Positions 4,097-40,050 of a stretch of DNA of 64,000 nucleotides are shown here, piece by piece. This DNA is from an uncultured Gammaproteobacteria bacterium (lineage in GTDB: Bacteria > Patescibacteriota > Microgenomatia > UBA1406). Made by a program: the position numbers and the translations under genes. Each line of letters opens with the position of its first letter. The stretch's first letter is position 1. The notes under the pieces are model-generated. The model searched no databases. It saw only the letters and a list, made by a program, of their open reading frames with translations, and was not told the origin of the DNA. The stretch lies in assembly GCA_964414145.1 (NCBI GenBank), contig CAYPVH010000002.1, positions 59,369-123,368 of the forward strand. The letters run 5' to 3'.

Positions 4097-4795
4097 CTAA
4101 CTAAACTGCAGCATTTTTTCGATTTTACTAAGGTTATGAAGCGTGTAATTTTTGTTTTTGTTTGAAAGCAAATTATTGTCTATTAATTTATATATTTCGC
4201 GGCTGGCGGTTTCGCGCGAAACACCGGCTAAAGCAGCAATTTCTTTATGAGTTATAGAAGATTTTATTTCGGCTTGGTTATCTGTTTTTTTACTGTTTAC
4301 AATTACATAACTATAAAAGGCCATTAATACTTTGGTGGTTGACAGGCTTAGCATTTGGTTTTCCAGGCACTTTAGGTTATATAAAGACCGCTGAACCAAT
4401 CTTTGCAAAACGGCTTCCAGTAAAAAATTATCTTTTTTTACTGCGTCGCAGAGTGTTTTTTCTGGTGTTTGCCAGGCTTCGGTATTTGAGCAGGCTTCGT
4501 AGTAATACTGACTGGTATGATTAAATAGATCGTATATGGGAAATACCTGGTTTTGCCCGAATAAGTTAAGTGTTTTTTCGTCGCCTTTGTGATCTAGCAA
4601 ATATTGGCGCACAATTCCTTTTTTTATTAAATAACAGTATTTATTACCACTGCTTTCAATATCAATAATTGTCTCGCCCTTCTTAAATTTAACGAGCTCA
4701 AATGTTTTGAAAAACTTACTTATATAATGGGCTAAATTGTTATCCACTATACAAAGTATAATACAATTCCTATTTTTGTATGTGACGATTGTCAC
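4097..4795 (-). CDS. Crp/Fnr-family transcriptional regulator (cNMP-binding domain + C-terminal HTH)
   Basis: 232 aa. FKKGETIIDIESSGNKYCYLIKKGIVRQY matches a cNMP-binding beta-roll, and the C-terminal THKEIAALAGVSRETASREIYKL is a Crp-type HTH. The track start is GTG 4795..4793, inside a CRP-type palindrome, so the true start is uncertain (an alternative GTG lies at 4747). Confidence 0.8.
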   Translation of the reverse strand: MTIVTYKNRNCIILCIVDNNLAHYISKFFKTFELVKFKKGETIIDIESSGNKYCYLIKKGIVRQYLLDHKGDEKTLNLFGQNQVFPIYDLFNHTSQYYYEACSNTEAWQTPEKTLCDAVKKDNFLLEAVLQRLVQRSLYNLKCLENQMLSLSTTKVLMAFYSYVIVNSKKTDNQAEIKSSITHKEIAALAGVSRETASREIYKLIDNNLLSNKNKNYTLHNLSKIEKMLQFS

Positions 4796-4796
4796 A
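4781..4796. promoter_or_regulatory. Perfect CRP-type palindrome TGTGA-N6-TCACA
   Basis: The sequence tgtgacgattgtcaca reads TGTGA cgattg TCACA, and the longer arms TGTGAC/GTCACA are also complementary. It overlaps the annotated GTG start of the Crp/Fnr gene and lies 11 nt downstream of a minus-strand TATAAT (4813..4808). Confidence 0.6.
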
Positions 4797-4903
4797 ATAC
4801 AGGAATTATTATAGTCATAAAATATTTTGTAAAAGTATTTTTACTATATTACAGAAAAATATGAGCAAACAATGTAATAAGGGTTGAATTAGATACTTTT
4901 TAT

Positions 4904-4923
4904 AAATACACAACATTTGTGTT
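4904..4923 (+). promoter_or_regulatory. Copy 1 of a shared 20-nt box AAATACACAAnATTTGTGTT (core palindrome ACACAAnATTTGTGT), abutting the -35 of the adhesin operon
   Basis: AAATACACAACATTTGTGTT is 19/20 identical to 13515..13534. The core ACACAAC-A-TTTGTGT at 4908..4922 is a 7-bp inverted repeat with one mismatch. Confidence 0.55.
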
Positions 4924-4951
4924 TGACAAAATTTGACCAAGGTTATAGTAT
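4923..4951 (+). promoter_or_regulatory. Putative promoter of the adhesin operon (TTGACA-17-TAGTAT, or TTGACA-15-TATAGT)
   Basis: TTGACA at 4923..4928. TAGTAT at 4946..4951 and TATAGT at 4944..4949 are the two -10 options. The ORF-track TTG start at 4917 reads through this promoter. Confidence 0.35.
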
Positions 4952-4982
4952 TGTATTTCAGGAAATTATTATAATAAACTAT

Positions 4983-5399
4983 ATGTTTCTAAAAAATAAA
5001 ACCAGGGGCAGGTTGTTTAGCTTTTTATCACTTTTGTCTATTTTATTTCAGTTACTTACTCCTTATTTGCTTTTTTTACCACCTGGAGTTGCTTTAGCTA
5101 AAGAAACAATAGTAGCAAAAGTAGACTTTGATAACAACACCAACGAATTTTTAGTAGAAGTGAATAGCAAAGAAAACCTAGAGTATTTGTTGGTATACAG
5201 GCAAAACGAAAAAAACGAAGCAATCACAGGTAAAGTAGAAAATGCAGAAGCCGATTTTAACAAAAAATTATTTGCCGGAACTTGTTCTGCAAACGGGGCT
5301 TGTGTTAGCCATAAAGTAGAAAAAGGTATTTTAAAATTTATATTGAAAGCCAGAATTATTTTAATGCCAAAAGATTTATTATTGAAAATGGAAAGCTAA
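4983..5399 (+). CDS. Signal-peptide-bearing small ORF, probably the displaced 5' end of the giant adhesin gene
   Basis: ATG 4983 gives MFLKNKTRGRLFSFLSLLSILFQLLTPYLLFLPPGVALAKE (n-h-c signal peptide) and then a beta-rich domain. The adhesin reading frame is already open from 5315, so the two frames overlap across an A5 run at 5320..5324. Confidence 0.5.
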   Translation: MFLKNKTRGRLFSFLSLLSILFQLLTPYLLFLPPGVALAKETIVAKVDFDNNTNEFLVEVNSKENLEYLLVYRQNEKNEAITGKVENAEADFNKKLFAGTCSANGACVSHKVEKGILKFILKARIILMPKDLLLKMES

Positions 5400-5428
5400 A
5401 TATAGTTTATGAATCGGATGAGGGCGAT

Positions 5429-8400
5429 ATGGAACTAGCAAGCCAAGAAGAAGACTGGCTAAAAACTGATAACGAGATTACCCCCACACCAATTCCAGGA
5501 CCAACACAAATTATACAACCTACAATTATTCCAACCCCAACCGGGGACATATTAAATGAAGGAATTAACATAGAAAGAAACCCAACCCCATATTCTGAAA
5601 TAGGAACGGTTGAAACAGAGGTTGTGGAAACGTATCAATGTTTGCAGAATTCATTAAACGGTTGTGTTATTACAGATAAAGAAGATTACTCGCCGAATGA
5701 AGTGGTTTTAATTTCTGGACATGGGTTTATTCCTAACACTCCATATGTTTTGGTAATTGCGTCTGAAACGGGGCAACTAGCGGAACAATTTGGAATTTTA
5801 ACCAATAAAGAAGGCAGTTTTGAATATAGTTATCAACTAGATGGTACATACCGACCAAACTATAGCGTGTTTGTTTATGATTCAAATAATAACTTAGTTA
5901 CAGAAACAAGCTTTACGGATTCGCCACCGTCTGAATGTATCTCTGATACTGATTGGGCAGATGATGAACCTGGACAAAAAGACTTAACAGAAATGTGCAC
6001 AGATTATTCCGAATGGTCAGCTTTTTTAGAGGTCTCTTGGAATTGGGATGATATAGCCTGGAGTGGTAATAACACCGGTGATGCATGTAGTCTTTTTGAT
6101 AATGACAATGATGGATATGCTAACTATGCAGTTTGTGTTCAAGTAACTGATGAGCCTGCTGTTTTTGATTCACAATATTTGTACACCTGTAATGATACAA
6201 GTGCTGTTCGATGTTTTGATAGCACTCTAAAAACCCCAAGCGCTAACACAATATGTGTTGCATCAGTACAATCTGGTACCAACCCTTTCGATTTAGGAAG
6301 TGATACAGTTGCAGATTGTAAAATTAACACTTTAGATGTTGGTGGAAGTCCTACGATTCTATTAGATGTATGTTCATATCCATCAGCTCAACCAAATTCT
6401 GATCCTTCTGATTGTATTGTTGCTTCAACAGCAAATCAAACTGGATTTCTCGAAGTTAAGAAAGTAATAGATCCTTCAACCGATTCTGGTTTGTTCAATT
6501 TACAGATTGATGGTACAACATATAAATATGACGCAGGAAATAACGGGTCGACTGGAGAAAAAATCGTTGACGCCGGCAATCATATAATTAGAGAAACAGC
6601 CGGAACGGCAACCACTTTAACTGACTATACATCTTCAATTGAATGTAAAGATGCTAATGGTTCAGGATCGATTGTTGCCCAAATCACTGGTCCCGGACCC
6701 TTAACAGTTCCGGTTGAAAATAATGATGATATAGTTTGTACCATTACAAATACTTATCAAGGGGGCTCTGTTACAATAATTAAAGATAGGGTTCCAGACT
6801 ATCCAGAATCTTTTCAATTTACCGGGGATTTGGGTAGTTTCGATTTATCTGGTGATAGTACAGCTGTTGACTACCAAAAAACATTTACTAATTTAACACC
6901 TCAAACCTATGTAGTCACCGAGCTTGAACCAAGCGAAACATATCTAGACTCAATTAGTTGTACAGGTGACACCGATAACGGGACGGTAGTTAATCTTGAT
7001 AATAATAGTGTCAATATTGATTTAGACCAGAACGAAGATATTGTTTGTACATTTACAAACAAAGAAAGAGGTTCAATCTCCGGAACTAAATGGGAAGATA
7101 TGAATGGTAATGGAATTAGAGATGCAGAGGATTTACCAATTTCCGGCTGGACGGTTAAACTTGATAAAGATGCAGATGGCGTAATAGACCAAACTACTAC
7201 GACTGATGGTAACGGTGATTATACTTTTAACAATCTTCTCCCCGGAACATATAAAGTATTGGAAGAATCGCCTTACCCTTGGAATGTTTCCTACCCTTCG
7301 TCGGGTATAAATTATTATAACGGAATTGTTTTAACTACTGGTGATAGTCTAACTGGCTATAATTTTGGAAATTATAAAAATGGCGAAATCAAAGGCTATA
7401 AATGGGAGGATATTAATGGTGATGGCAATAAAGATAATGGTGAGGGAGCGCCAGATAATCAGTGGCAGATTAAATTATGGAAAGAAATAGATGGGATACC
7501 GGTAGATCAAGGTAGCTCAGTTTATTCTAATCCAACTACTGGAGCTTTTACTTTCGGTGTCACGCCAGGAACTTATTATTTAAGTGAGGTTATGCAGGAA
7601 GGTTGGCTGCAGACTTATCCGACCAACGCAGTTTTGGCCCCTGATGGAGTTACTAGGTTACTTGGACCAATAGTGATCACCTCGGGTTCAATTAGCGAAA
7701 ATAACAATTTTGGTAATGTTCAACAAGGTTCTATTTCAGGATACAAATATGAAGATATGGATGGCGACTTGTCAACAACAGAAGATTTAAGTAGTATTTT
7801 TGGCTGGACAATAGATCTATATGAATGTATTGATGATTTTGATAATTGTCTTATTAAAGAAACTACTCAAACAGACAATGATGGCTATTATATTTTTGAA
7901 AACTTGTTGCCCGGTCTTTACAAAATTATAGAAGCATTACCGGGTGGCTGGACAAACATACTACCAATAACAATAAACGGGGAATTAACAGCAGGTGAAG
8001 TAAGCACTGAAAACAATTTCATCAACTTTGAAAACGTGTCTATAACCGCATGCAAAGTTGAAGATAACGACGGTCTTGTAAACACAACCGAAGACCAAAC
8101 TTTTGTTAACGGCTGGGAAGTAACCTTAACAAAAAATGATATATCAGATACTCAACTAACAGAAACGGATGGTTGTTATACTTGGAGTAATTTAGAACCA
8201 GGAGATTATGCACTTTCAGAAGAAGCAAGAAATGGCTGGACAAACTTAAATAGCTCAACACATAGTTTTGGAATTGTTGAAAGTGGGCAGAGTTATAGTT
8301 ATACATTTGTCAATAGCCGTCTTGGTGAAATTATTGTTGAAAAGCAGGTTTTGCCAGATGGTTACTATCAAACTTTTGCTTTTAATGGCGAAGTTTCGGG

Positions 8401-11400
8401 TATGATTGGCGATGGTCAGCAACTATCAAAAACTGTGTTACCAGGTACTTACACTGTTTCCGAATCTATGCCCTATACTTCAGGTTATCAACTAAAAAAT
8501 ATTGTTTGTGATGATGATAATTCAGTTTCTAATATTCAAGCAGGAACTGCTACATACATAGTAGAGCCGGGAGAAACTGTTAAGTGTACTTTTACAAATG
8601 AAATGTTTGGTTCAATAACTGCCAAAAAATTTCACGATTATAATCAAGATGAAACTCAGAATGCAGGTGAACCTAGTCTGCCAAATTGGCAAATGAGCTT
8701 TTATGACGGTTTTGGCTGTGAAGAAGAAAATAATACGTGGAGCAGTACAACGGGCACTGACGGGACTGTTACAATGTATTCATTACTCCCGGGTGAATAT
8801 TCTGTGAAAGAGAGATTAGTAGAGGGGTGGATGAATACTACAGACTTATGCCAGAACATAATAGTTGCTCCTGGTGAAAACACGTCTGTAGATTTTGGAA
8901 ATTTGCAACTAGGATCATTAATTGTTCACAAATTTGAAGATATAGATGGGGATGGTGTCAAACAAGCAAGCGAGCCCTATGTTGAAAATTGGAGAATGAC
9001 TTTGCATAACGGAAACAGTTGTACAAATCAGAATCAAATAGACGAAGGATTTACCAACGAGAACGGTGAGTATGAATTTTCAAATTTAACGCCTGGAATT
9101 TACAGTGTATTTGAATGGCCACAGAACGGTTGGACTAATTCCACAGGTAATCCTTGTAAAACCGTAACTTTAACAGCAAACCAAAATACAACAGTAGAAT
9201 TTGGGAATTATAAAACGGGCTTTATTGAAGGTAGAAAATTTGAAGATTTAAACAGTAGTGGCTCTTATAATACTGGTGAACCATTTTTACCCGGTTGGAC
9301 TATAAGACTTTATAATGATAAAGATGGTTCCTGGCAAGATAATGATATTGAAAGCATTACAGATGGATCGGGTTGGTATCGTTTTAGTGATTTAAGTATG
9401 GGTCGGTATAAAATTTGTGAAGTAATGCAATCTGGTTGGACACAGACTGTACCAACAGGGACAGTAAATAATGAGGAGTCTAATGAAGCGCCGCGCTGTC
9501 GTGTAGTTACGGTTGACGAGTCTGGTGAAGTATTGAGGCGGAATTTTGGCAATGTTCAGTATGGTTCAGTTCGGGTTCATAAGTTTGAAGATTTAAACAA
9601 CAATTCCATATTCAATGACGATGAGCCATTGCTTGATAATTGGGTTATTCAACTTGGTAATGAAACCAAAACAACCGTAAACGGAATAGCAGAATTTAAT
9701 AACCTAATTCCAGGTAATTACGGTCTTACTGAACTTACTTATCTTACAGATTGGCAATTAACAAACATTTATTGTGATAATGTTGATTTTGCCATAGATT
9801 CTAGTAATCAATATAATGTTACTGTTGCATCGGGTGAGAATGTTAATTGCTATGTAGGAAACTACCAACTTGGTTTAATTCAGGGGCGAAAATATTATGA
9901 CTATAACCAAAATGGCAGTAAAGATAGCGATGATACCTGGTTAAAAGGTTGGGTTATTAGATTGTATAAAGATGTAAGAGGAATTTGGCAAGACATTAGT
10001 GAAACCAGAACAACTAGTAATAATGGGCTGTTCAGATTTGAAAACCTTGAACCTGGTACTTACTACACATGTGAAGTACTTCAAGAAGGCTGGCAGCAAA
10101 CCGGACCGGTTTTGGGTGGCCAACGAATAGTTAACCAATCACCAAATAGTAATATTGATGAAGCGCCTGTGTGTTGGCAGTCTGTTATTAATCAATCCGG
10201 AACAAGAAGAACAGGGCGCCGATTTGGTAATGTCCAATATGGAAATATATTAGTAACAAAATATAACGATTTGAATAATAACGGTCAAAGAGATCCAGAA
10301 GAACTGGTATTACCAGATTGGGAAATCACCTTGAAAAAAGTGCAAGACTCAGATTATGCTGAATCGTCTCTTACAGATATTGAAGGAAGTGTTCAATTTA
10401 ATAACCTACTAGAAGCTGAATACTATTTGTCTGAAACCATGAAAGAGGGTTGGCAGCAAACAGATATTACTTGTTATTTAGAAGAACAAGAATCAGTTAC
10501 CGAAGATGTTCAGGTAGATTTAGTAGATCCATATGACTCAGAAAACGGACAATATTTGCTAAACCTTAATCCAGGAGAAACTTACAACTGTGAGATTGGT
10601 AACCACTATGCACCACCAATCCTAACTATAGCCAAATCCAACAACGTATGGCCAACAACCACAACACCAGGCAACTCAGTAGAATACAAAATTGTACTAG
10701 ATGTAGAAGATAATAATATTAAAAACGTAAAAGTAACCGACTTGCCCCCAGAAGGGTTTACCTATAGAGGGGGCAGTTACAAAGTGCTCTTAACTCGAGG
10801 AGGAACAACCACAGATATCACTAGCCAAGTGAATGAGCCGGTCTACCATTCACCAGGAGTATGGGGTCTTGGAGATCTGGAAAAAGATGACCAGGTTACC
10901 ATGATTTACACTGCTGACATTCAAGGCAGTACAGATTTTGGTTTGTATAAAGACTTAGCCTTTGCTTATGGTTGCCCCATTGGCCAAGAACAATGTAGTG
11001 TAACCGATGAGGAGGCAGTAGTTGCGAGCTCAGTAGACTCAGGTACCGCCGATGACGGGGTAGTAAACGAAAATTTTGTCGGTACAAAAGTTAACATAAA
11101 CCAAGAAACAACAGAAACAAACACCTTTAGTGTAGAAAAAGAAGAAGAGAAGAAAGAAGAGGGAAGTGTGCTAGGGGCCTCGACTGGTTTACCAGCTACC
11201 GGTTCAGTAACACTGATTACTCAAATTGCCCTGGTAAGCATGCTTGGCTCATTGTTACTATTAGCCATAAATTTACTCAGAAAGAAAAAGGCACATATTG
11301 TTTCTCTGCTAGTATTAACTGCTATCTTTTTTAACATTACTCAAGTAAACGCTGCTGAAATCACCAGTGTAAGATTAGAAGAGCCAAAGTCCCCAACAAA

Positions 11401-12289
11401 CGAGAATAGTTTTAATTTAGAGTTTGTTGCTATGGATATGGCAAATAGCCAAATTCAGGTTGAATGCTATAAAAAGGGCCCAACAGACTCAACATATACA
11501 AAGTTTGATACTACAAAAAATTTAAAGGCAGGCGGGAACAGCGGTCAGTGTGTAGTAAACTCAAGTGTTATGCCTGAGAATGGCTCGTACGGGTTTTATG
11601 TTATAGCAACCGGTTCGATGCAGGTAAGCAGTGAGTATGTAATTGTTGATTACAACTCAAGCAGACCAAGTACTCCTGTAAGTTATAGCAAAGATAAAAT
11701 AGACTCTTGTCACTATAAGATTAAATTCAAAACAGCCGACGACGGAGATAGGACTAATGGTGTAGAAATTTATAGGTCGGGAAACAATAGTTTTAATATC
11801 GACTCGAGTAATAAGATAGCCACAGTAAGCGTTGGTTCCAACGAAGAAAAAGAATATACAGACTCGGTTCCAGATTGCGGAAAGGATTACTACTATGCAA
11901 TTCGGGCAGTTGACCAGTTTGGCAATGTTTCTTCTGTGATTGGCGACAAAAATATAAAATTTATAACTAGCTCAACAACAATCACAACTACAGTTACCGA
12001 CACTACAGAAACGGAGGCAATTCCTGTAACAACTAATGAGTCTCAAGTTAGGCCAGATAATACAGATGAAACGGGTAGTTCACAAGAATCGGGTACAAAA
12101 AAAGACACTGAAGACAATACAGATATAGAAACAGAACAGGGTGAAGTACTGGGTGTTCAAGAACAAAAAAAATTATTGGATAAACTAAAGTCTTTTGTGG
12201 TTAAAAATAAAGGAATTGCTGGTTTAATTGTTTTGTTCGTAGTAGTATTGATTTATGTTCTTATTCAGAAAATCAAAAAAGCTAAGTAA
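5429..12289 (+). CDS. Giant cell-surface adhesin-like protein. Order of parts: PT linker, Cys-rich domain, prealbumin/SpaA-like folds, about 10 SdrD-B/Cna-B-like repeats, DUF11-like domain, internal LPATG sorting signal, then an FN3-containing membrane module
   Basis: 2286 aa. The recurring unit is G-S-I-x-G-x-K-[WF]-E-D-x-N-G-[ND]-G-x-x-D...GW...T-D-x-x-G-x-Y-x-F-x-N-L-x-P-G-x-Y. A DUF11-like stretch reads LTIAKSNNVWPTTTTPGNSVEYKIVL...VKVTDLPPEGF. LPATG is at residues 1921-1925. There is no N-terminal signal peptide; the product starts in a PT-rich linker (TPTPIPGPTQIIQPTIIPTPTG). Confidence 0.85.
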   Translation: MELASQEEDWLKTDNEITPTPIPGPTQIIQPTIIPTPTGDILNEGINIERNPTPYSEIGTVETEVVETYQCLQNSLNGCVITDKEDYSPNEVVLISGHGFIPNTPYVLVIASETGQLAEQFGILTNKEGSFEYSYQLDGTYRPNYSVFVYDSNNNLVTETSFTDSPPSECISDTDWADDEPGQKDLTEMCTDYSEWSAFLEVSWNWDDIAWSGNNTGDACSLFDNDNDGYANYAVCVQVTDEPAVFDSQYLYTCNDTSAVRCFDSTLKTPSANTICVASVQSGTNPFDLGSDTVADCKINTLDVGGSPTILLDVCSYPSAQPNSDPSDCIVASTANQTGFLEVKKVIDPSTDSGLFNLQIDGTTYKYDAGNNGSTGEKIVDAGNHIIRETAGTATTLTDYTSSIECKDANGSGSIVAQITGPGPLTVPVENNDDIVCTITNTYQGGSVTIIKDRVPDYPESFQFTGDLGSFDLSGDSTAVDYQKTFTNLTPQTYVVTELEPSETYLDSISCTGDTDNGTVVNLDNNSVNIDLDQNEDIVCTFTNKERGSISGTKWEDMNGNGIRDAEDLPISGWTVKLDKDADGVIDQTTTTDGNGDYTFNNLLPGTYKVLEESPYPWNVSYPSSGINYYNGIVLTTGDSLTGYNFGNYKNGEIKGYKWEDINGDGNKDNGEGAPDNQWQIKLWKEIDGIPVDQGSSVYSNPTTGAFTFGVTPGTYYLSEVMQEGWLQTYPTNAVLAPDGVTRLLGPIVITSGSISENNNFGNVQQGSISGYKYEDMDGDLSTTEDLSSIFGWTIDLYECIDDFDNCLIKETTQTDNDGYYIFENLLPGLYKIIEALPGGWTNILPITINGELTAGEVSTENNFINFENVSITACKVEDNDGLVNTTEDQTFVNGWEVTLTKNDISDTQLTETDGCYTWSNLEPGDYALSEEARNGWTNLNSSTHSFGIVESGQSYSYTFVNSRLGEIIVEKQVLPDGYYQTFAFNGEVSGMIGDGQQLSKTVLPGTYTVSESMPYTSGYQLKNIVCDDDNSVSNIQAGTATYIVEPGETVKCTFTNEMFGSITAKKFHDYNQDETQNAGEPSLPNWQMSFYDGFGCEEENNTWSSTTGTDGTVTMYSLLPGEYSVKERLVEGWMNTTDLCQNIIVAPGENTSVDFGNLQLGSLIVHKFEDIDGDGVKQASEPYVENWRMTLHNGNSCTNQNQIDEGFTNENGEYEFSNLTPGIYSVFEWPQNGWTNSTGNPCKTVTLTANQNTTVEFGNYKTGFIEGRKFEDLNSSGSYNTGEPFLPGWTIRLYNDKDGSWQDNDIESITDGSGWYRFSDLSMGRYKICEVMQSGWTQTVPTGTVNNEESNEAPRCRVVTVDESGEVLRRNFGNVQYGSVRVHKFEDLNNNSIFNDDEPLLDNWVIQLGNETKTTVNGIAEFNNLIPGNYGLTELTYLTDWQLTNIYCDNVDFAIDSSNQYNVTVASGENVNCYVGNYQLGLIQGRKYYDYNQNGSKDSDDTWLKGWVIRLYKDVRGIWQDISETRTTSNNGLFRFENLEPGTYYTCEVLQEGWQQTGPVLGGQRIVNQSPNSNIDEAPVCWQSVINQSGTRRTGRRFGNVQYGNILVTKYNDLNNNGQRDPEELVLPDWEITLKKVQDSDYAESSLTDIEGSVQFNNLLEAEYYLSETMKEGWQQTDITCYLEEQESVTEDVQVDLVDPYDSENGQYLLNLNPGETYNCEIGNHYAPPILTIAKSNNVWPTTTTPGNSVEYKIVLDVEDNNIKNVKVTDLPPEGFTYRGGSYKVLLTRGGTTTDITSQVNEPVYHSPGVWGLGDLEKDDQVTMIYTADIQGSTDFGLYKDLAFAYGCPIGQEQCSVTDEEAVVASSVDSGTADDGVVNENFVGTKVNINQETTETNTFSVEKEEEKKEEGSVLGASTGLPATGSVTLITQIALVSMLGSLLLLAINLLRKKKAHIVSLLVLTAIFFNITQVNAAEITSVRLEEPKSPTNENSFNLEFVAMDMANSQIQVECYKKGPTDSTYTKFDTTKNLKAGGNSGQCVVNSSVMPENGSYGFYVIATGSMQVSSEYVIVDYNSSRPSTPVSYSKDKIDSCHYKIKFKTADDGDRTNGVEIYRSGNNSFNIDSSNKIATVSVGSNEEKEYTDSVPDCGKDYYYAIRAVDQFGNVSSVIGDKNIKFITSSTTITTTVTDTTETEAIPVTTNESQVRPDNTDETGSSQESGTKKDTEDNTDIETEQGEVLGVQEQKKLLDKLKSFVVKNKGIAGLIVLFVVVLIYVLIQKIKKAK
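7070..10600 (+). repeat. Protein-level tandem array of about 10-11 diverged SdrD-B/Cna-B-like domains (about 95-115 aa each) with Ca-binding-like D/N-x-D/N-G loops
   Basis: Unit starts are GSISGTKWEDMNGNG, GEIKGYKWEDINGDG, GSISGYKYEDMDGD, VSITACKVEDNDG, GSITAKKFHDYNQDE, GSLIVHKFEDIDGDG, GFIEGRKFEDLNSSG, GSVRVHKFEDLNNNS, GLIQGRKYYDYNQNG and GNILVTKYNDLNNNG. The units have diverged at the DNA level, with no long identical DNA repeats seen. Confidence 0.6.
11189..11290 (+). other. Complete sortase sorting signal located internally (LPATG + 25-aa hydrophobic segment + RKKK)
   Basis: The codons tta cca gct acc ggt at 11189..11203 encode LPATG. They are followed by SVTLITQIALVSMLGSLLLLAINLL and RKKK, and the ORF continues with no stop. 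Confidence 0.8.
11291..12286 (+). other. Embedded second surface-protein module: signal-peptide-like segment, two FN3-like domains, T/E-rich linker, C-terminal TM + KIKKAK
   Basis: AHIVSLLVLTAIFFNITQVNA|AE has an AxA-like cleavage context. The FN3 hallmark is ...YYYAIRAVDQFGNVSS. The module ends GIAGLIVLFVVVLIYVLIQKIKKAK. Confidence 0.6.
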
Positions 12290-12914
12290 AACTGCCAATT
12301 CTAATTCTTTCCAGTTAAAAAATCTACTAAAATTAATCTTATTATTATCATTGATAATACTGTTTCTTATTTATTTTCCGGTTGTAAAAGAAGAAATACT
12401 TTACTTTTTTAATAAGCCTGATTTTACCCGCAGCGTATCGTTAACCAAAAAAGCCAACAAGAATGTTATAAAACCGGTTAATAACCAATTTGCCATTGTT
12501 ATACCAAAAATAAACGTTAATAGCTCTGTGGTTGAAAATGTTAGTCCATTCAATTCAGAAGAATACCAGACCGCCCTAACAAAAGGAGTAGCGCATTCAA
12601 TCACTTCGGCAGTACCCGGAAAAGGTCAGAATGTTTTTATCTTTGCTCATTCCGCAGGTAATTTTTACTATGCAAATAGGTTTAATGCAATTTTTTATTT
12701 AATTCACAAACTAGATCTGAATGACAACATTTATATTATATATAAAGGCAAAAAACATCATTATCAAGTTAAGAAAAAAATAATTGTAGATTCAAAAAGA
12801 ACAGATTATCTTTATCCACAGTTTAGTAATAACGAAAGCCTAACGCTTATGACTTGCTGGCCGCCGGGAACAACTTTAAAAAGGCTAATTGTAGTAGCCA
12901 ATATTGTAGAGTAA
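12255..12914 (+). CDS. Sortase (transpeptidase, N-terminal membrane anchor)
   Basis: 219 aa with a basic N-terminus and TM (LLKLILLLSLIILFLIYF). Catalytic contexts are IFAHS (His), TLMTCWPPG (TLxTC Cys) and KRLIVV (Arg). The ATG at 12255 overlaps the adhesin 3' end by 35 nt. Confidence 0.85.
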   Translation: MFLFRKSKKLSKTANSNSFQLKNLLKLILLLSLIILFLIYFPVVKEEILYFFNKPDFTRSVSLTKKANKNVIKPVNNQFAIVIPKINVNSSVVENVSPFNSEEYQTALTKGVAHSITSAVPGKGQNVFIFAHSAGNFYYANRFNAIFYLIHKLDLNDNIYIIYKGKKHHYQVKKKIIVDSKRTDYLYPQFSNNESLTLMTCWPPGTTLKRLIVVANIVE

Positions 12915-12931
12915 TTGCTAATCTATTGTTA

Positions 12932-13492
12932 ATGCCAACAAAATTACAAAAAAAACTTACAGCTCTTACGTTGTTGGTATTAATATTGATACTCAACGAG
13001 CTATACCCAAATCTATCGGCTTATATTAATGACTTTTGGGAAGTTAATAATATTAAGCAAGAAAAGGTAGTTGTCAGTGACTTAAATAAAACTGTGGTAG
13101 TTGCGCGAGTTATTGATGGGGATACAGTTGAGTTAAGTACTGGTGAAAAAGTAAGGTATATTGGCATTGATACCCCCGAAGTTAATAACAATAGTTATAA
13201 GTCGCAGTGTTTTGCTACACAAGCAAAAGCGGCCAACAAAAGGCTGGTTTTAGGTAAACAAGTAATATTGGAAAAAGACGTGTCAAATACAGATAGGTAT
13301 GACAGGTTATTAAGGTATGTGTACGTTGTTAACAAAACAGGTAAAAAAATATTTATAAATAAACAATTAGTTAAGGAAGGTTACGCAACAGTCTTTACTT
13401 ACCCGCCAGATGTTAGATATGCAGAGGTATTTGTAAAGGCAGAAAAGCATGCTCGGAACAATAATAAAGGGCTATGGGCAATGTGTAGGTGA
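12932..13492 (+). CDS. Membrane-anchored thermonuclease (staphylococcal nuclease / SNase family)
   Basis: From ATG 12932: MPTKLQKKLTALTLLVLILIL (TM), then ARVIDGDTVEL...VRYIGIDTPE...DRYDRLLRYVY...LVKEGYA, the classic SNase signature. The track start at 12854 is an upstream extension overlapping the sortase. Confidence 0.8.
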   Translation: MPTKLQKKLTALTLLVLILILNELYPNLSAYINDFWEVNNIKQEKVVVSDLNKTVVVARVIDGDTVELSTGEKVRYIGIDTPEVNNNSYKSQCFATQAKAANKRLVLGKQVILEKDVSNTDRYDRLLRYVYVVNKTGKKIFINKQLVKEGYATVFTYPPDVRYAEVFVKAEKHARNNNKGLWAMCR

Positions 13493-13511
13493 TGTATAGT
13501 AAAAAATATGG

Positions 13512-13539
13512 TTGAAATACACAAAATTTGTGTTACAAT
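13512..13539 (+). promoter_or_regulatory. Promoter TTGAAA-16-TACAAT of the sortase-fusion gene, with the -10 box 8 nt from ATG 13548
   Basis: TTGAAA at 13512..13517 and TACAAT at 13534..13539. The ORF-track TTG start at 13512 is the -35 hexamer read as a codon. Confidence 0.55.
13515..13534 (+). promoter_or_regulatory. Copy 2 of the shared 20-nt box, filling the -35/-10 spacer (perfect palindrome ACACAAA-A-TTTGTGT)
   Basis: AAATACACAAAATTTGTGTT. The core at 13519..13533 is a perfect 7-bp inverted repeat around a central A. Confidence 0.6.
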
Positions 13540-13547
13540 TTACAATT

Positions 13548-14834
13548 ATGAGTATTAAAAAACACAACCAACAAACCCTTTCTGTTAAAAAAACTAATTC
13601 TATTGTTCAGAAGCTTTCTACATTTTTCCTTGTTGTTATTTTTTCACTTTTCCTTTTAACTACAACTAATGTTTGGGCAGATGACACGGCAACAGGTTCG
13701 GCTCAAATAGAATCAGAGAATACACCTACTCCAACAGAAACCGAAAAGAAATGCCCTGAGGGTTCAGATTGGGTAAAGGTTGATAATAATAAAGCAGGTG
13801 ACGATGATAATAGCGATGATGTCATTTCTTACACAGATCCAAGCGGAAATACTATTAGTGGGGTTTGTGTAAAGGGGGGTAAAGAAGGTACTAGCCCAAA
13901 TGGATACCTGGAATACTTTTATGAAGATGGTCCTTATATGTATGATGGTGCTTTATGTTTTACAATTTCGGGTATAGGAACCGATAAAGTTACAATTACA
14001 TATAGTGGAGATGGTGTTTGTGCAGAACTATCTCATGCTAGTTTTTATACAGGTGAGCCTACGCCCACTCCTACAGATGAAATAACTCCTACAGACGAGA
14101 TTACACCAACAGATGAAATAACACCAACAGAAGAAATAACAGAAGCGCCTACCCCAACAACTGAGCCAACTTCTACCCCAACACCAACGGAACAGGAAGA
14201 TAATAACGATGATGATGATAATGATGATAACAACGATGACAATAATGATGACAATAACGACTCTAATAATAATATTGGTGGCGCCGAATCTAACCCGGTG
14301 GTTTTAGCAGCTATCGAAACAACCAGGCCACAGGTACTTTCAGCTGTAGACAACTATAACCCGTTACTTGATTCCATTAAAAAAACAGGTAAAGTTTTGG
14401 GAATAAGTACAAAAAAGTTACCAAAAACCGGAGTTAAAGTAGCTAACTGGGCAATGCCTAAATACCCATCAAGTAATAAAGCTATGGAAAATTCCTACAT
14501 AGTTATCAATAAGATAGGAATTAACGCCCCACTGTACCAAGCCAGCAATATAGGTGAAGACTTGTTAGTAGGCGACAGTGAAATACTAAATACCGGCAAT
14601 ATGTATTACGGCCACAATTCTCGCTCTGCTTTTGAAAGTCTATGGCAGTTAAGAAAAGGCGACAGCATAATTGTAACCAAAAACGGTAACACCCAAGTAT
14701 ATACGGTTAATAGCACAGCATATATAAACGAAACAGAAGTTGAAAAAACCAATACGGGTAGCAACGAAATCAGTTTGGTAACCTGTGTTTTGGGTAATTC
14801 AAATTTAAGACTAGTAGTTAAAGCAAGTAAATAA
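13548..14834 (+). CDS. Sortase-domain fusion protein. Order of parts: signal/anchor, 4-Cys domain, PT repeats, D/N tract, LPKTG motif, C-terminal sortase catalytic domain
   Basis: 428 aa from ATG 13548. STFFLVVIFSLFLLTTTNVWA|DD is the signal. The C-terminal ~110 aa have YYGHNS (His), LVTC (Cys, TGT 14784..14786) and LRLVV (Arg), aligned like the neighbouring sortase. LPKTG lies about 20 aa before the catalytic domain. Confidence 0.8.
   Translation: MSIKKHNQQTLSVKKTNSIVQKLSTFFLVVIFSLFLLTTTNVWADDTATGSAQIESENTPTPTETEKKCPEGSDWVKVDNNKAGDDDNSDDVISYTDPSGNTISGVCVKGGKEGTSPNGYLEYFYEDGPYMYDGALCFTISGIGTDKVTITYSGDGVCAELSHASFYTGEPTPTPTDEITPTDEITPTDEITPTEEITEAPTPTTEPTSTPTPTEQEDNNDDDDNDDNNDDNNDDNNDSNNNIGGAESNPVVLAAIETTRPQVLSAVDNYNPLLDSIKKTGKVLGISTKKLPKTGVKVANWAMPKYPSSNKAMENSYIVINKIGINAPLYQASNIGEDLLVGDSEILNTGNMYYGHNSRSAFESLWQLRKGDSIIVTKNGNTQVYTVNSTAYINETEVEKTNTGSNEISLVTCVLGNSNLRLVVKASK
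14073..14144 (+). repeat. 4 x 18-bp in-frame tandem repeat encoding (T)DEITP units
   Basis: The units are acagatgaaataactcct / acagacgagattacacca / acagatgaaataacacca / acagaagaaataacagaa. Confidence 0.85.
14199..14273 (+). repeat. GAT/AAT/AAC/GAC low-complexity tract encoding a pure D/N acidic stretch
   Basis: It encodes DNNDDDDNDDNNDDNNDDNNDSNNN. Confidence 0.8.
14418..14432 (+). other. LPKTG pentapeptide inside the sortase-fusion protein, not followed by a TM or charged tail
   Basis: The codons tta cca aaa acc gga. The context is GKVLGISTKKLPKTGVKVANWAMPKYPSSNK, followed by the sortase domain. Confidence 0.8.
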
Positions 14835-14838
14835 CAAA

Positions 14839-15225
14839 ATGGCAAAGTCAACAAAAAAAAGGGGAGTTAGGGTAGGCAAAATTAAACCGGTAAAACCAGG
14901 GCTAAGTATCAATCAAAAGAATTTAATCACCTTGTTTGCTATTGTGCTAGTTGCTTCCGCTATTTTTATTTTCTTTATAACAAAAAGAGTGGTAAATACT
15001 AGGTCTGAACAAAAAGCCGCTCAAATTAAAAAAGAACAGCAAGTAATGGCCAAGCAAACATTAATTAGCCAGCTTGGCTTGGGAAAAGCCTGGAAAATTA
15101 CAGAAGAAAATTCGGGTAAAACAGTCATTAAATTGGAAAAAGATGTGCAAAACAGTGCAGTTAAACCTACTATTTTGTTAATTAAATCAAGTTACTCAAA
15201 CACTAGCCCTGCAGACTACTCATAA
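14839..15225 (+). CDS. Single-pass membrane protein, function unknown (possibly the 5' part of a longer gene)
   Basis: 128 aa with a basic N-terminus and TM (LITLFAIVLVASAIFIFFI). It ends at TAA 15223..15225, and the next ORF (15262) is in the same frame. Confidence 0.55.
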   Translation: MAKSTKKRGVRVGKIKPVKPGLSINQKNLITLFAIVLVASAIFIFFITKRVVNTRSEQKAAQIKKEQQVMAKQTLISQLGLGKAWKITEENSGKTVIKLEKDVQNSAVKPTILLIKSSYSNTSPADYS

Positions 15226-15261
15226 AAAATAGTACAAGGGGCTTATTCTACACTTCCTTCA

Positions 15262-15483
15262 TTGAGCTACTACAAAGATAATATTATTGAGGAAGATGAG
15301 CTTTATATAAGGGAATTGATGGGTAGTTATTACATTAATAAAGACACAAAAGTAAGCTTAATGCAAAACCTTTATTTAAAAGAAAGCACAATTTGGGTAT
15401 TAACCGCCTCATACAGTAATAGCGAAATAGAAACAGAAATAAAAGGGGCCTTAAGCGAGATTCAAAAAAAGTACATCAAGTAA
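15262..15483 (+). CDS. Hypothetical 73-aa ORF, in frame with 14839..15225 (possible continuation)
   Basis: It has a TTG start with no SD or promoter. 15262-14839 = 423 (a multiple of 3), and only one stop codon separates the two ORFs. Confidence 0.35.
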   Translation: MSYYKDNIIEEDELYIRELMGSYYINKDTKVSLMQNLYLKESTIWVLTASYSNSEIETEIKGALSEIQKKYIK

Positions 15484-15487
15484 TTTT

Positions 15488-15816: not shown

Positions 15817-16254
15817 TTAACGAAACAAATCTAATAATTTTTTAAAATAAGTTGGGGATCGAAGTTTTTTCAAATACTGAGCCCATTCCTCTTCTGCTTT
15901 GTACTTCTTTTTTAATCTTTCGGTAGTTTTTTTCATTTCCTCTACTACTCTTTTTTCTTCATTATTGTCTAACCAATATCCGTGCATATTTTCACAGTAG
16001 TCAAGATGTAAATCATTAAGCCTATAATTGAAACCAACCATTTGCTTGTTACATTTTGGACATTTTAATCTAGATAATTTCTTATTCCACACTAAAGTTC
16101 CTTTTGATTCGTCATTACTGAGAACTGTGTCTTCTAATTGATCAAGCTCACTAAAGTCAAGCCATAAACCGCCACAGTTGGAACATTTGTCTACTATAAT
16201 ATCCTGATAAAGTTTACGGGTAAGACGCTCATGGTCACAATTTGGACATTTCAT
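15817..16254 (-). CDS. Double zinc-ribbon protein (TFIIB-type zf, two CxxC...CxxCGGxWLD units)
   Basis: From ATG 16254: MKCPNCDHERL...CSNCGGLWLDFSELDQL and CPKCNKQM...YCENMHGYWLDNNE. The track start at 16278 is a TTG extension. Confidence 0.6.
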   Translation of the reverse strand: MKCPNCDHERLTRKLYQDIIVDKCSNCGGLWLDFSELDQLEDTVLSNDESKGTLVWNKKLSRLKCPKCNKQMVGFNYRLNDLHLDYCENMHGYWLDNNEEKRVVEEMKKTTERLKKKYKAEEEWAQYLKKLRSPTYFKKLLDLFR

Positions 16255-16291
16255 GAAATTAATTTTAGCAGAAAGCAATATAAAAAACTAG

Positions 16292-38367: not shown

Positions 38368-40050
38368 ATGTGGCACCAACTAAAAAATTTATATAAAAGT
38401 AAGCAAAGCACACTCTATGCTTCAACTATAGTGGTTGCACTAACACTATTTGTTGCCAGAATTTTAGGTCTGGTTAAATTAAGGGTATTAACCGGGTATT
38501 TTGACAAGAGCCAACTAGATCTTTTTTTTGCCGCATTTCGGCTACCAGATTTTATTTTTGAGGTTTTTGTTGCCGGTTCAATTTCATCTTGCTTTATCCC
38601 AATAATTTCGGAAATAGTAGATAAAAAGAAAAACGGTAAAGACGAAATAATGATATTTTCGCAATCACTATCATTGATCTTCTTATTTTCTTGGATAATT
38701 ATTTTTTTGGTAATGAAAATATTTGCAAAAAATATAGTTGAAATACTGGTGCCCGGCTATACTGCGGCACAAGTAAATATGGTTTCTTCAATGTCCCTAA
38801 CCATTCTTTTTTATCAGGTTCCGTTCTTACTTTTGGGTAATGTATTATCTGCAATTCTACAGACAGAAAAACAATTTTTAATACCCGGCATAGCTCCTGC
38901 TTTTTATAATTTGGGAATTATTGCCGGTGTTATCTTGTTTGCGCAAAAACATGGTCTATATGGCGCCTTATATGGCGTAGGTATTGGTTCTGTTTTGTAC
39001 TTTATTACTTTGTTTTTAGGTGTATATATTCTTGGTTATCCAATAAAGATTAAAATATATTTGTTTGATAAAAAAATTAAACGTTTTTTCAATCTATTTT
39101 GGCCCAGGTTCTTTAATTCGTTAACTGCACAAGTTGATGCCACGGTAGATTTGGCTTTGTCAACCCTAAGAGGAGTAGGAAGTTATTCATCTTTTTACTT
39201 AGCTAGAAACCTACAAATTTTACCGGTCAGTTTTTTTGGTATTGCCGTGTCTCAAACTGCTTTACCTTTTTTTTCCAGGCTATATCATCAGAATAAAAAG
39301 GAAGAATTAATGCAACTCTTGGTTAAGTTTGTTTTACAAATAACTTTTATTATGATGCCGTTTGTTATTTTTTTTACAGCGCTCAGAGTACCAATTGTCC
39401 GTCTATTTTTTGGAGGCGACAAGTTTGACTTATTAGCTACACAAAGAACTGCAAATGTATTGTCAATATTTGCTTTGTCGTTGCCTTTTCATACTGTATA
39501 TTACCTTATCACGAGAGCCTATTTTGCTATACAAGACACAAAAACCCCTTTTGTTACCGGAGTTATTTTTACTCTATCAAATACGCTTTTAAGTATCATA
39601 TTTATCAAAGTTTTAAATTTACCTGTTTATTTTTTAGCATTATCATTTACAACATCAATTACTTTAAACACTGCTGTTTTATTTTATCTCCTAGTTAAAA
39701 AACTGGATTCGGTAAAAATTGTTCCTGTTTTGGGCAAGTTTTTATTAATGGGTTTGAATACAATTGCTACTACTTTTGTAGTTTGGGTTAGTCTAAAGTT
39801 ACTGGATGGACTAGTTTTTGATACGGGAAGAACAATAAATCTTTTTATATTAACAATGATATGTGTCTTTATTGGTAGTATGGTTTATTTATATTTATCA
39901 TGGATATTTGTTCCTGCCGAACTAAAAAGTGTTCTCAGCTTAGTTTATAGATTTAGTTTCTTTAAGAAAACCATTTCTAAATATAAAGAAATTTTTTATA
40001 CTGGTAAGACCGATATTCCTTTAGAAGATAAGCAAGAGCAAAAATTATGA
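38368..40050 (+). CDS. murJ: Lipid II flippase MurJ (MviN, MOP superfamily)
   Basis: About 560 aa and polytopic. LGLVKLRVLTGYFDKSQLDLFFAAFRLPDFIFEVFVAGSISSCFIP matches the MurJ N-terminal pattern. The start is ATG 38368 or TTG 38365. Confidence 0.8.
   Translation: MWHQLKNLYKSKQSTLYASTIVVALTLFVARILGLVKLRVLTGYFDKSQLDLFFAAFRLPDFIFEVFVAGSISSCFIPIISEIVDKKKNGKDEIMIFSQSLSLIFLFSWIIIFLVMKIFAKNIVEILVPGYTAAQVNMVSSMSLTILFYQVPFLLLGNVLSAILQTEKQFLIPGIAPAFYNLGIIAGVILFAQKHGLYGALYGVGIGSVLYFITLFLGVYILGYPIKIKIYLFDKKIKRFFNLFWPRFFNSLTAQVDATVDLALSTLRGVGSYSSFYLARNLQILPVSFFGIAVSQTALPFFSRLYHQNKKEELMQLLVKFVLQITFIMMPFVIFFTALRVPIVRLFFGGDKFDLLATQRTANVLSIFALSLPFHTVYYLITRAYFAIQDTKTPFVTGVIFTLSNTLLSIIFIKVLNLPVYFLALSFTTSITLNTAVLFYLLVKKLDSVKIVPVLGKFLLMGLNTIATTFVVWVSLKLLDGLVFDTGRTINLFILTMICVFIGSMVYLYLSWIFVPAELKSVLSLVYRFSFFKKTISKYKEIFYTGKTDIPLEDKQEQKL

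Follow-up and report, generated by a model that had tools for sequence, protein, structure and literature searches.

Two copies of a 20-nt palindromic box, differing at a single central base, overlap the promoter-like sites of two sortase-linked surface-display units in the 64-kb stretch of DNA analyzed here (the window). We read this box, with a probability of about 0.55, as the operator of one homodimeric regulator that would co-repress both units by promoter occlusion. A palindromic operator on promoter DNA is a conventional, ordinary phenomenon, and as a cis-regulatory prediction the one made here is credible; the box owes its value to the organism and to the type of genes, i.e. surface display in a CPR bacterium. 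The large surface proteins and sortases of Patescibacteria/CPR are prime candidates for host attachment, and to our knowledge transcriptional regulation in these bacteria is almost unexplored. A cis-element common to the only two sortase units found in the region would provide a handle for regulator capture, regulon prediction and the reading of metatranscriptomes.

The two copies, AAATACACAACATTTGTGTT (nucleotides 4904 to 4923, copy 1) and AAATACACAAAATTTGTGTT (nucleotides 13515 to 13534, copy 2), are both on the plus strand and are identical at 19 of 20 positions, the sole difference being the central C4914 of copy 1, which is A13525 in copy 2. An inverted repeat with the structure ACACAA-N3-TTGTGT is perfect in both; in copy 1 its arms occupy nucleotides 4908-4913 and 4917-4922 around a dyad at 4915. 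Copy 2 has a perfect 7-1-7 palindrome, ACACAAA-A-TTTGTGT (nucleotides 13519-13533, dyad at 13526), while copy 1 has a C instead of an A at the innermost arm position. A preliminary description of this DNA had given the same coordinates and single-base difference, and had called copy 2 a perfect palindrome and copy 1 a palindrome with one mismatch, all of which agrees with the sequence. The dyad symmetry of both copies is compatible with a dimeric binding protein. When both strands of the window were scanned with the degenerate 20-mer allowing up to 3 mismatches, 2 matches were obtained against 0.09 expected, and none of 100 shuffles contained two or more such matches. The skeleton ACAC-N7-GTGT occurs exactly twice in the 64 kb, at the two box sites, both of them intergenic and located directly 5' of gene starts, and no variant with a spacing of N5, N6, N8 or N9 was found in the intergenic DNA of the window. 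In the other 22 intergenic segments the best match to the core had at least 4 mismatches at the 14 specified bases, which upholds the earlier statement that these segments lack the box. Elsewhere in the window the 15-nt core was matched 20 times with up to 3 mismatches, versus 16.5 expected, i.e. at chance level.

The window is part of a 145,107-bp NCBI contig and has a G+C content of about 33%, and its DnaK shows 76-78% identity to Roizmanbacteria proteins and 95% to one relative; the source is a Candidatus Roizmanbacteria-like (Microgenomates, CPR/Patescibacteria) genome. The first unit downstream of the box is a set of overlapping plus-strand ORFs (nucleotides 4983 to 13492), and this overlap suggests that they form one operon. 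It includes a 138-aa secreted protein with a signal peptide (4983-5399), a 2286-aa SdrD_B/SpaA-repeat adhesin with a C-terminal transmembrane segment and a basic tail (5429-12289), a sortase (12255-12914), and an SNase-family nuclease (12854-13492). The adhesin has eight SdrD_B domains and several SpaA prealbumin-like domains. Its end (nucleotides 12050-12289 of the plus strand) resembles a cell wall sorting signal, with a hydrophobic segment followed by the basic tail (…GIAGLIVLFVVVLIYVLIQKIKKAK); no canonical LPXTG is visible just upstream of the hydrophobic segment, and the recognition motif of the sortase in this adhesin may therefore be non-canonical. The ATG at 4983 is not preceded by a well-placed Shine-Dalgarno sequence. 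The second unit (13548 to 14834, plus strand) codes for a 428-aa sortase fusion, in which a signal peptide and a Cys-rich N-terminal domain are followed by a TPTDEI/acidic linker and, at the C terminus, by a sortase domain. The domain content confirms the gene annotation proposed earlier for both units, which have sortases and their likely substrates as a common theme and are the only two sortase units in the region. Right after the sortase-fusion gene there is a 214-codon frame for a membrane-anchored protein (14839-15484, plus strand) that is interrupted only by one in-frame TAA (15223-15225), which could reflect a nonsense mutation or pseudogene, a sequencing error, or read-through.

The remaining genes of the window are housekeeping genes (the dcw cluster, IleRS, tRNA-Val, hrcA-grpE-dnaK-dnaJ and uvrBC), and those on this contig have relatives that are 78-95% identical to them. 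For the Crp-family gene adjacent to the first unit, the sortase fusion, and the 138-aa protein, no homologue was found that exceeds about 37% identity; among about 5.8 billion proteins the best relatives of the sortase fusion and the Crp-family protein showed 37% and 31% identity, respectively. The loci of these distant homologues of the sortase fusion and the Crp-family protein are not syntenic and do not have the box. The region from 4097 to 15225 looks like strain-specific accessory DNA. The term "island" that had been applied to it is only loosely justified: close homologues are missing, but neither an integrase nor a tRNA-derived att repeat was found in or near the region.

A consensus scan placed a promoter-like site, TTGACA-17-TAGTAT, upstream of the adhesin operon (nucleotides 4923 to 4951, plus strand; −35 at 4923-4928 and −10 at 4946-4951) and another, TTGAAA-16-TACAAT, upstream of the sortase-fusion gene (13512 to 13539, plus strand; −35 at 13512-13517 and −10 at 13534-13539), each with 10 of 12 consensus matches and the latter with an extended −10 TG. 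The predicted transcription start sites, each uncertain by 2 nt or more, would be at about 4958 and about 13546, which would place the dyads of the two boxes at about −43 and about −20, respectively; the mRNA of the sortase fusion, with its ATG at 13548, would be nearly leaderless. Box 1 abuts the −35 hexamer of the adhesin operon; it had been described as ending in the TT of TTGACA, and the overlap is real although it amounts to one T rather than two bases. Box 2 had been described as filling the spacer between TTGAAA and TACAAT, which it does over the entire 16 nt, but it also reaches into both hexamers, taking up three bases at the end of TTGAAA and the initial T of TACAAT, and the TG of the extended −10 comes from its TGT. 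Each box overlaps the top-scoring, correctly oriented sigma-70-like promoter site directly 5' of its unit. Overall, hexamer pairs are no more frequent than background in DNA as AT-rich as this (70 versus 77 expected in 20 kb), and the assignment of both promoters is therefore plausible but not proven; pairs scoring at least 10/12 are rare, however, numbering about ten in 20 kb when both strands are counted. Just after box 1, nucleotides 4922-4938 of the plus strand contain a 10-bp-phased direct repeat, TTTGACA-AAA-TTTGACC, whose TTGACC is a second −35-like hexamer. Read on the minus strand as GGTCAAA-TTT-TGTCAAA, this repeat resembles the CtsR operator consensus, A/GGTCAAA-NAN-A/GGTCAAA.

By itself, the 19/20 identity is weak evidence of non-randomness because the window holds five pairs of 20-mers with this level of identity, against a mean of 0.6 when dinucleotides are shuffled. 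At least one of the remaining four pairs (13501-13520 and 38727-38746, AAAAAATAT(G/A)GTTGAAATAC) has a copy in a coding gene: its first copy is intergenic and extends into box 2 from the left, and its second copy lies inside the murJ coding sequence. We take this repeat as a chance match, and it cautions how readily such pairs arise. Both facts favor an explanation in which the box has no function, being either an accidental or historical likeness (for example a short stretch copied through gene conversion or illegitimate recombination) or the product of convergence on promoter-intrinsic features, with an incidental palindromy. Candidates for such features are the A-rich upstream stretch, the TTGAAAT-type −35 context and the extended −10 TGn, and it is in keeping with this explanation that bases of copy 2 double as −35 bases and as the TG of the extended −10. 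The identity of the two copies also extends on the left side over four non-palindromic bases (AAAT), for which the chance probability is about 0.01 and of which a symmetric dimer gives no explanation. However, the box pair is the sole palindromic one among the five, and no palindromic 19/20 pair was found in any of 60 whole-window shuffles. Furthermore, intergenic DNA amounts to 2,939 nt, 4.6% of the window, and includes both copies; when the intergenic DNA alone was shuffled, a 19/20 pair of any kind was found in 28 of 3000 trials (p≈0.009), and the chance that a given 20-mer is a 6-3-6 palindrome is about 0.003. As the pair is palindromic and both of its copies lie within this 4.6%, a shared palindromic box at both promoters is very unlikely to be due to chance, the product of p≈0.009 and about 0.003 making the combination of location, palindromy and 19/20 identity very improbable. 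The box also occupies different promoter elements in each copy, so a shared promoter-intrinsic role fails to explain an identity of 20 nt. On balance we regard a similarity without function as unlikely.

Comparison with other genomes and metagenomes bears on the same question. A scan of 185,579 species-representative genomes, a collection to which the genome of the window does not belong, with AATACACAANATTTGTGTT produced 28 matches, which include a Clostridia cluster that corresponds to a conserved coding segment and otherwise look random; none of the genomes with these matches has two copies. The exact box was not found in any CPR genome among these representatives, all those of Roizmanbacteria included. 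A metagenome scan with ATACACAANATTTGTGTT gave at least 120 matches. Among the matches listed, most are in unrelated DNA, many of them in ORF-free and probably eukaryotic termite-gut DNA, and none is on a contig from the window's own samples. Loci with two copies, also among the matches listed, consist of coding domain repeats (L038), an ORF-poor contig (L037), and a contig with closely spaced copies (L137). Two other contigs, unrelated to the window, have layouts similar to a box in a promoter, which speaks for a similarity without function. In one of them (L072, 1735-1765) the arrangement TTGAAA-TACACAATATTTGTGT-TAAAAT resembles copy 2 and is located 18 nt upstream of a gene for a xylose-isomerase-like TIM-barrel protein; the other (L131, 4137-4163) has 27 nt in common with copy 1, including TTGACAA, and no plus-strand gene downstream. 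This extended likeness is marginal, with p about 0.05 when compared to flank extension among unrelated matches.

The flanks of the two boxes do not align, with the similarity stopping at the box edges, and the proteins encoded downstream are unrelated; a duplicated promoter-plus-gene segment was rejected on these grounds. A 20-nt island of identity in dissimilar DNA is the expected product of selection on a binding site. According to the operator reading, one homodimeric, sequence-specific protein would bind ACAC-N7-GTGT across the A/T-rich center, making its outer half-site contacts about 11 bp apart, i.e. one helical turn. Occlusion, the simplest mechanism because both sites overlap core promoter DNA, would repress both core promoters, and the two sortase-dependent surface-display units would be switched on and off together. 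The gene for the protein would be located outside the region examined. The data behind this reading are thin, as they come from a single genome and a pair of sites. That a dimeric protein co-regulates the units is something that we infer from anatomy only, and the binding of a protein, its dimeric state, the sign of regulation and the positions of the transcription start sites are likewise deduced from the sequence.

Dyads at about −43 and about −20 do not guarantee one mode of action. The same factor could activate the adhesin operon and repress the sortase-fusion promoter, which would result in reciprocal expression of the two units. Box 1, located just upstream of TTGACA with a 1-nt overlap and with its dyad at about −42/−43, would be positioned like the site of class II activators (CRP/FNR-type), which sit at −41.5, and box 2 in the spacer would be at a classic repressor position. 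Yet promoters that depend on an activator usually have poor −35 elements, whereas in the adhesin promoter the −35 (TTGACA) already matches the consensus and the spacer is 17 nt long, which makes a dual mode of action less likely; in addition, the start sites on which these distances depend are predictions that may be off by 2 nt or more. We consider this dual role distinctly unlikely. A more specific proposal, to which we give slightly less credit still, is that a lineage-specific regulator of an episymbiotic CPR bacterium would use the box as a two-way switch, turning the adhesin operon on and the sortase fusion off. If this were true, the cell would toggle between surface-display states, for example host attachment versus a free state, and the circuit would be among the first host-attachment gene circuits defined in Microgenomates.

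The predicted RNA hairpins of the two boxes have folding energies of −3.6 and −5.5 kcal/mol, with z values of −0.23 and −0.60, no better than those of shuffles, no terminator-like site or T-tract was found at either box, and the only Rfam match in the window is tRNA-Val. A hairpin, a terminator or another structured RNA was rejected as an explanation of the box because of the weak folds, the lack of a T-tract, and the lack of an Rfam match at the boxes, and the first two of these make a role at the DNA level fit better than one at the RNA level. The weakness of the hairpin also bears on whether the copies are members of a family of short palindromes repeated in intergenic DNA throughout the genome, comparable to REP or MITE elements, of which two happen to be in the window. 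They are palindromic, intergenic and nearly identical, copy 2 starts 23 nt past a stop codon, and the window covers 64 kb, leaving about 0.9 Mb if the genome has the roughly 1 Mb that is typical of CPR bacteria. Nevertheless, elements of the REP type tend to be longer and to fold more stably, whereas here the hairpin is short and weak, there is no similarity past 20 nt, and the 64 kb contain two copies with none, even degenerate, in the remaining intergenic segments. Membership in such a family appears quite improbable.

The two copies form a direct repeat that exactly encloses unit 1 (nucleotides 4924-13514), each has internal dyad symmetry like recombinase core sites, and the genes of the island are missing from the nearest database relatives. 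They could thus be thought of as recombination sites, in which case excision, as a form of phase or content variation, would remove an 8.6-kb adhesin-sortase-nuclease cassette and leave the sortase-fusion gene behind a hybrid box. Against this idea, the arms of 6-7 bp with a 1-3-bp center fit neither family of recombinases, as the cores of tyrosine recombinases have spacers of 6-8 bp and those of serine recombinases have arms of about 12 bp around a 2-bp center. No recombinase or integrase was found in or near the island, nor was a tRNA-derived att repeat. Several JGI samples contain short (1-2 kb) contigs of the same population, and those that were aligned (L029 and L030) are 100% identical to the window. 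Where JGI contigs of other samples extend over box 1 they are identical to the window, no deleted variant was seen among the contigs retrieved, and no junction contig was found among the metagenome matches listed. Excision by recombination at the box is therefore very improbable, and the copies are not obviously the att repeats of a tRNA-linked island, since no recombinase, tRNA repeat, fitting geometry or deleted variant was recovered.

If the box is the operator of a dimeric protein, an obvious candidate for its cognate factor would be the Crp/Fnr-family regulator encoded divergently from unit 1 (nucleotides 4097 to 4795, minus strand), which includes a cNMP-binding domain and an HTH_Crp_2 domain. 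The protein likely starts at the GTG at 4747. On the same strand a predicted promoter, TTTACA-17-AATAAT (4833-4805), is followed by a GTG at 4795, and the predicted mRNA would be leaderless or nearly so. The closest solved relatives of the protein are CprK and NtcA, and its recognition helix, SRETASR, aligns with SRETVGR of E. coli CRP, keeping the R-E-x-x-x-R pattern. Over the start region of its gene lies TGTGACGATTGTCACA (nucleotides 4781-4796, plus strand), the only perfect TGTGA-N6-TCACA in the window, which is probably the protein's own, autoregulatory site. The half-sites of the box are everted relative to this site. On the grounds of the CRP-type helix and the perfect canonical site of its own, the Crp-family protein is disfavored as the factor that would bind the box, and the opinion already expressed in the preliminary description, which pointed to the reversed half-sites, is thereby strengthened.

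A CRP/FNR-type site was also considered independently of this protein. The box shares with such sites the TGTG/CACA-type half-sites, the dyad symmetry, a distance of about one helical turn between half-site centers, and a position near −41.5 or overlapping promoters. It differs in having the structure ACACA-N5-TGTGT, with everted half-sites separated by N5 instead of N6, and the eversion makes canonical docking of a CRP fold impossible. The sole CRP-like match that touches a box, TGTGT-TACAAT-TTACA (nucleotides 13529-13544), has 2 mismatches and a quality that is expected at chance frequency. This class was rejected in view of the everted half-sites and the presence of a perfect site elsewhere (at 4781-4796).

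Among other operator classes, the NrdR box is similar in its outer ACAC...GTGT palindrome, its A/T-rich center, its location in promoter DNA and its proposed role in repression. NrdR boxes are 16 bp long, with conserved C4, A6, A8, T9, T11 and G13, and precede nrd genes in pairs whose members are joined by a linker of 15-16 bp (PMC13584703). The box described here is 15 bp long rather than 16, its critical C and G lie 7 bp apart instead of 8, and there is a single box per locus, with no second one in the flanks. No match to ACAC-N8-GTGT was found in the window, nor was a zinc-ribbon/ATP-cone NrdR seen there. An NrdR box was rejected because of the wrong spacing, the single boxes, and the presence of adhesin and sortase genes in place of nrd genes. 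A resemblance to LacI/PurR operators, as represented by the PurR box ACGCAAACGTTTGCGT, consists of the very similar arm pattern ACnCAAA/TTTGnGT in a palindromic site that overlaps a promoter and would repress it. Operators of the LacI family have an even length (16 bp) and a central CpG for insertion of the hinge helix, unlike the box, whose length is odd and whose central base is A or C, with no CpG; the window contains no gene of the LacI family. The occluding operators of the LexA, Fur and TetR types are also comparable, as palindromes of about 15 bp located over the −35, the spacer or the −10 and serving a regulon with one theme. The proposed regulon here differs in having two known members, and the box sequence is not known to match a consensus of the LexA, Fur or TetR type.

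Apart from the Crp-family protein, the DNA-binding-type proteins of the window comprise HrcA, a protein with a ParB-HTH and one with a double zinc ribbon; none of them is linked to the box, and no candidate for the cognate regulator was found. The double zinc-ribbon protein, which was considered as an NrdR-like candidate, was rejected because it lacks an ATP-cone and nothing connects it with the box. It is encoded by a 153-aa ORF (146 aa from the first ATG) at nucleotides 15817-16278 of the minus strand, which lies beside tRNA-Val on the island's right-hand border and includes two TFIIB-type zinc ribbons (PF13453 twice). Its only relative in the PDB is 8yoz, an 82-aa "transcription factor zinc-finger domain" protein.
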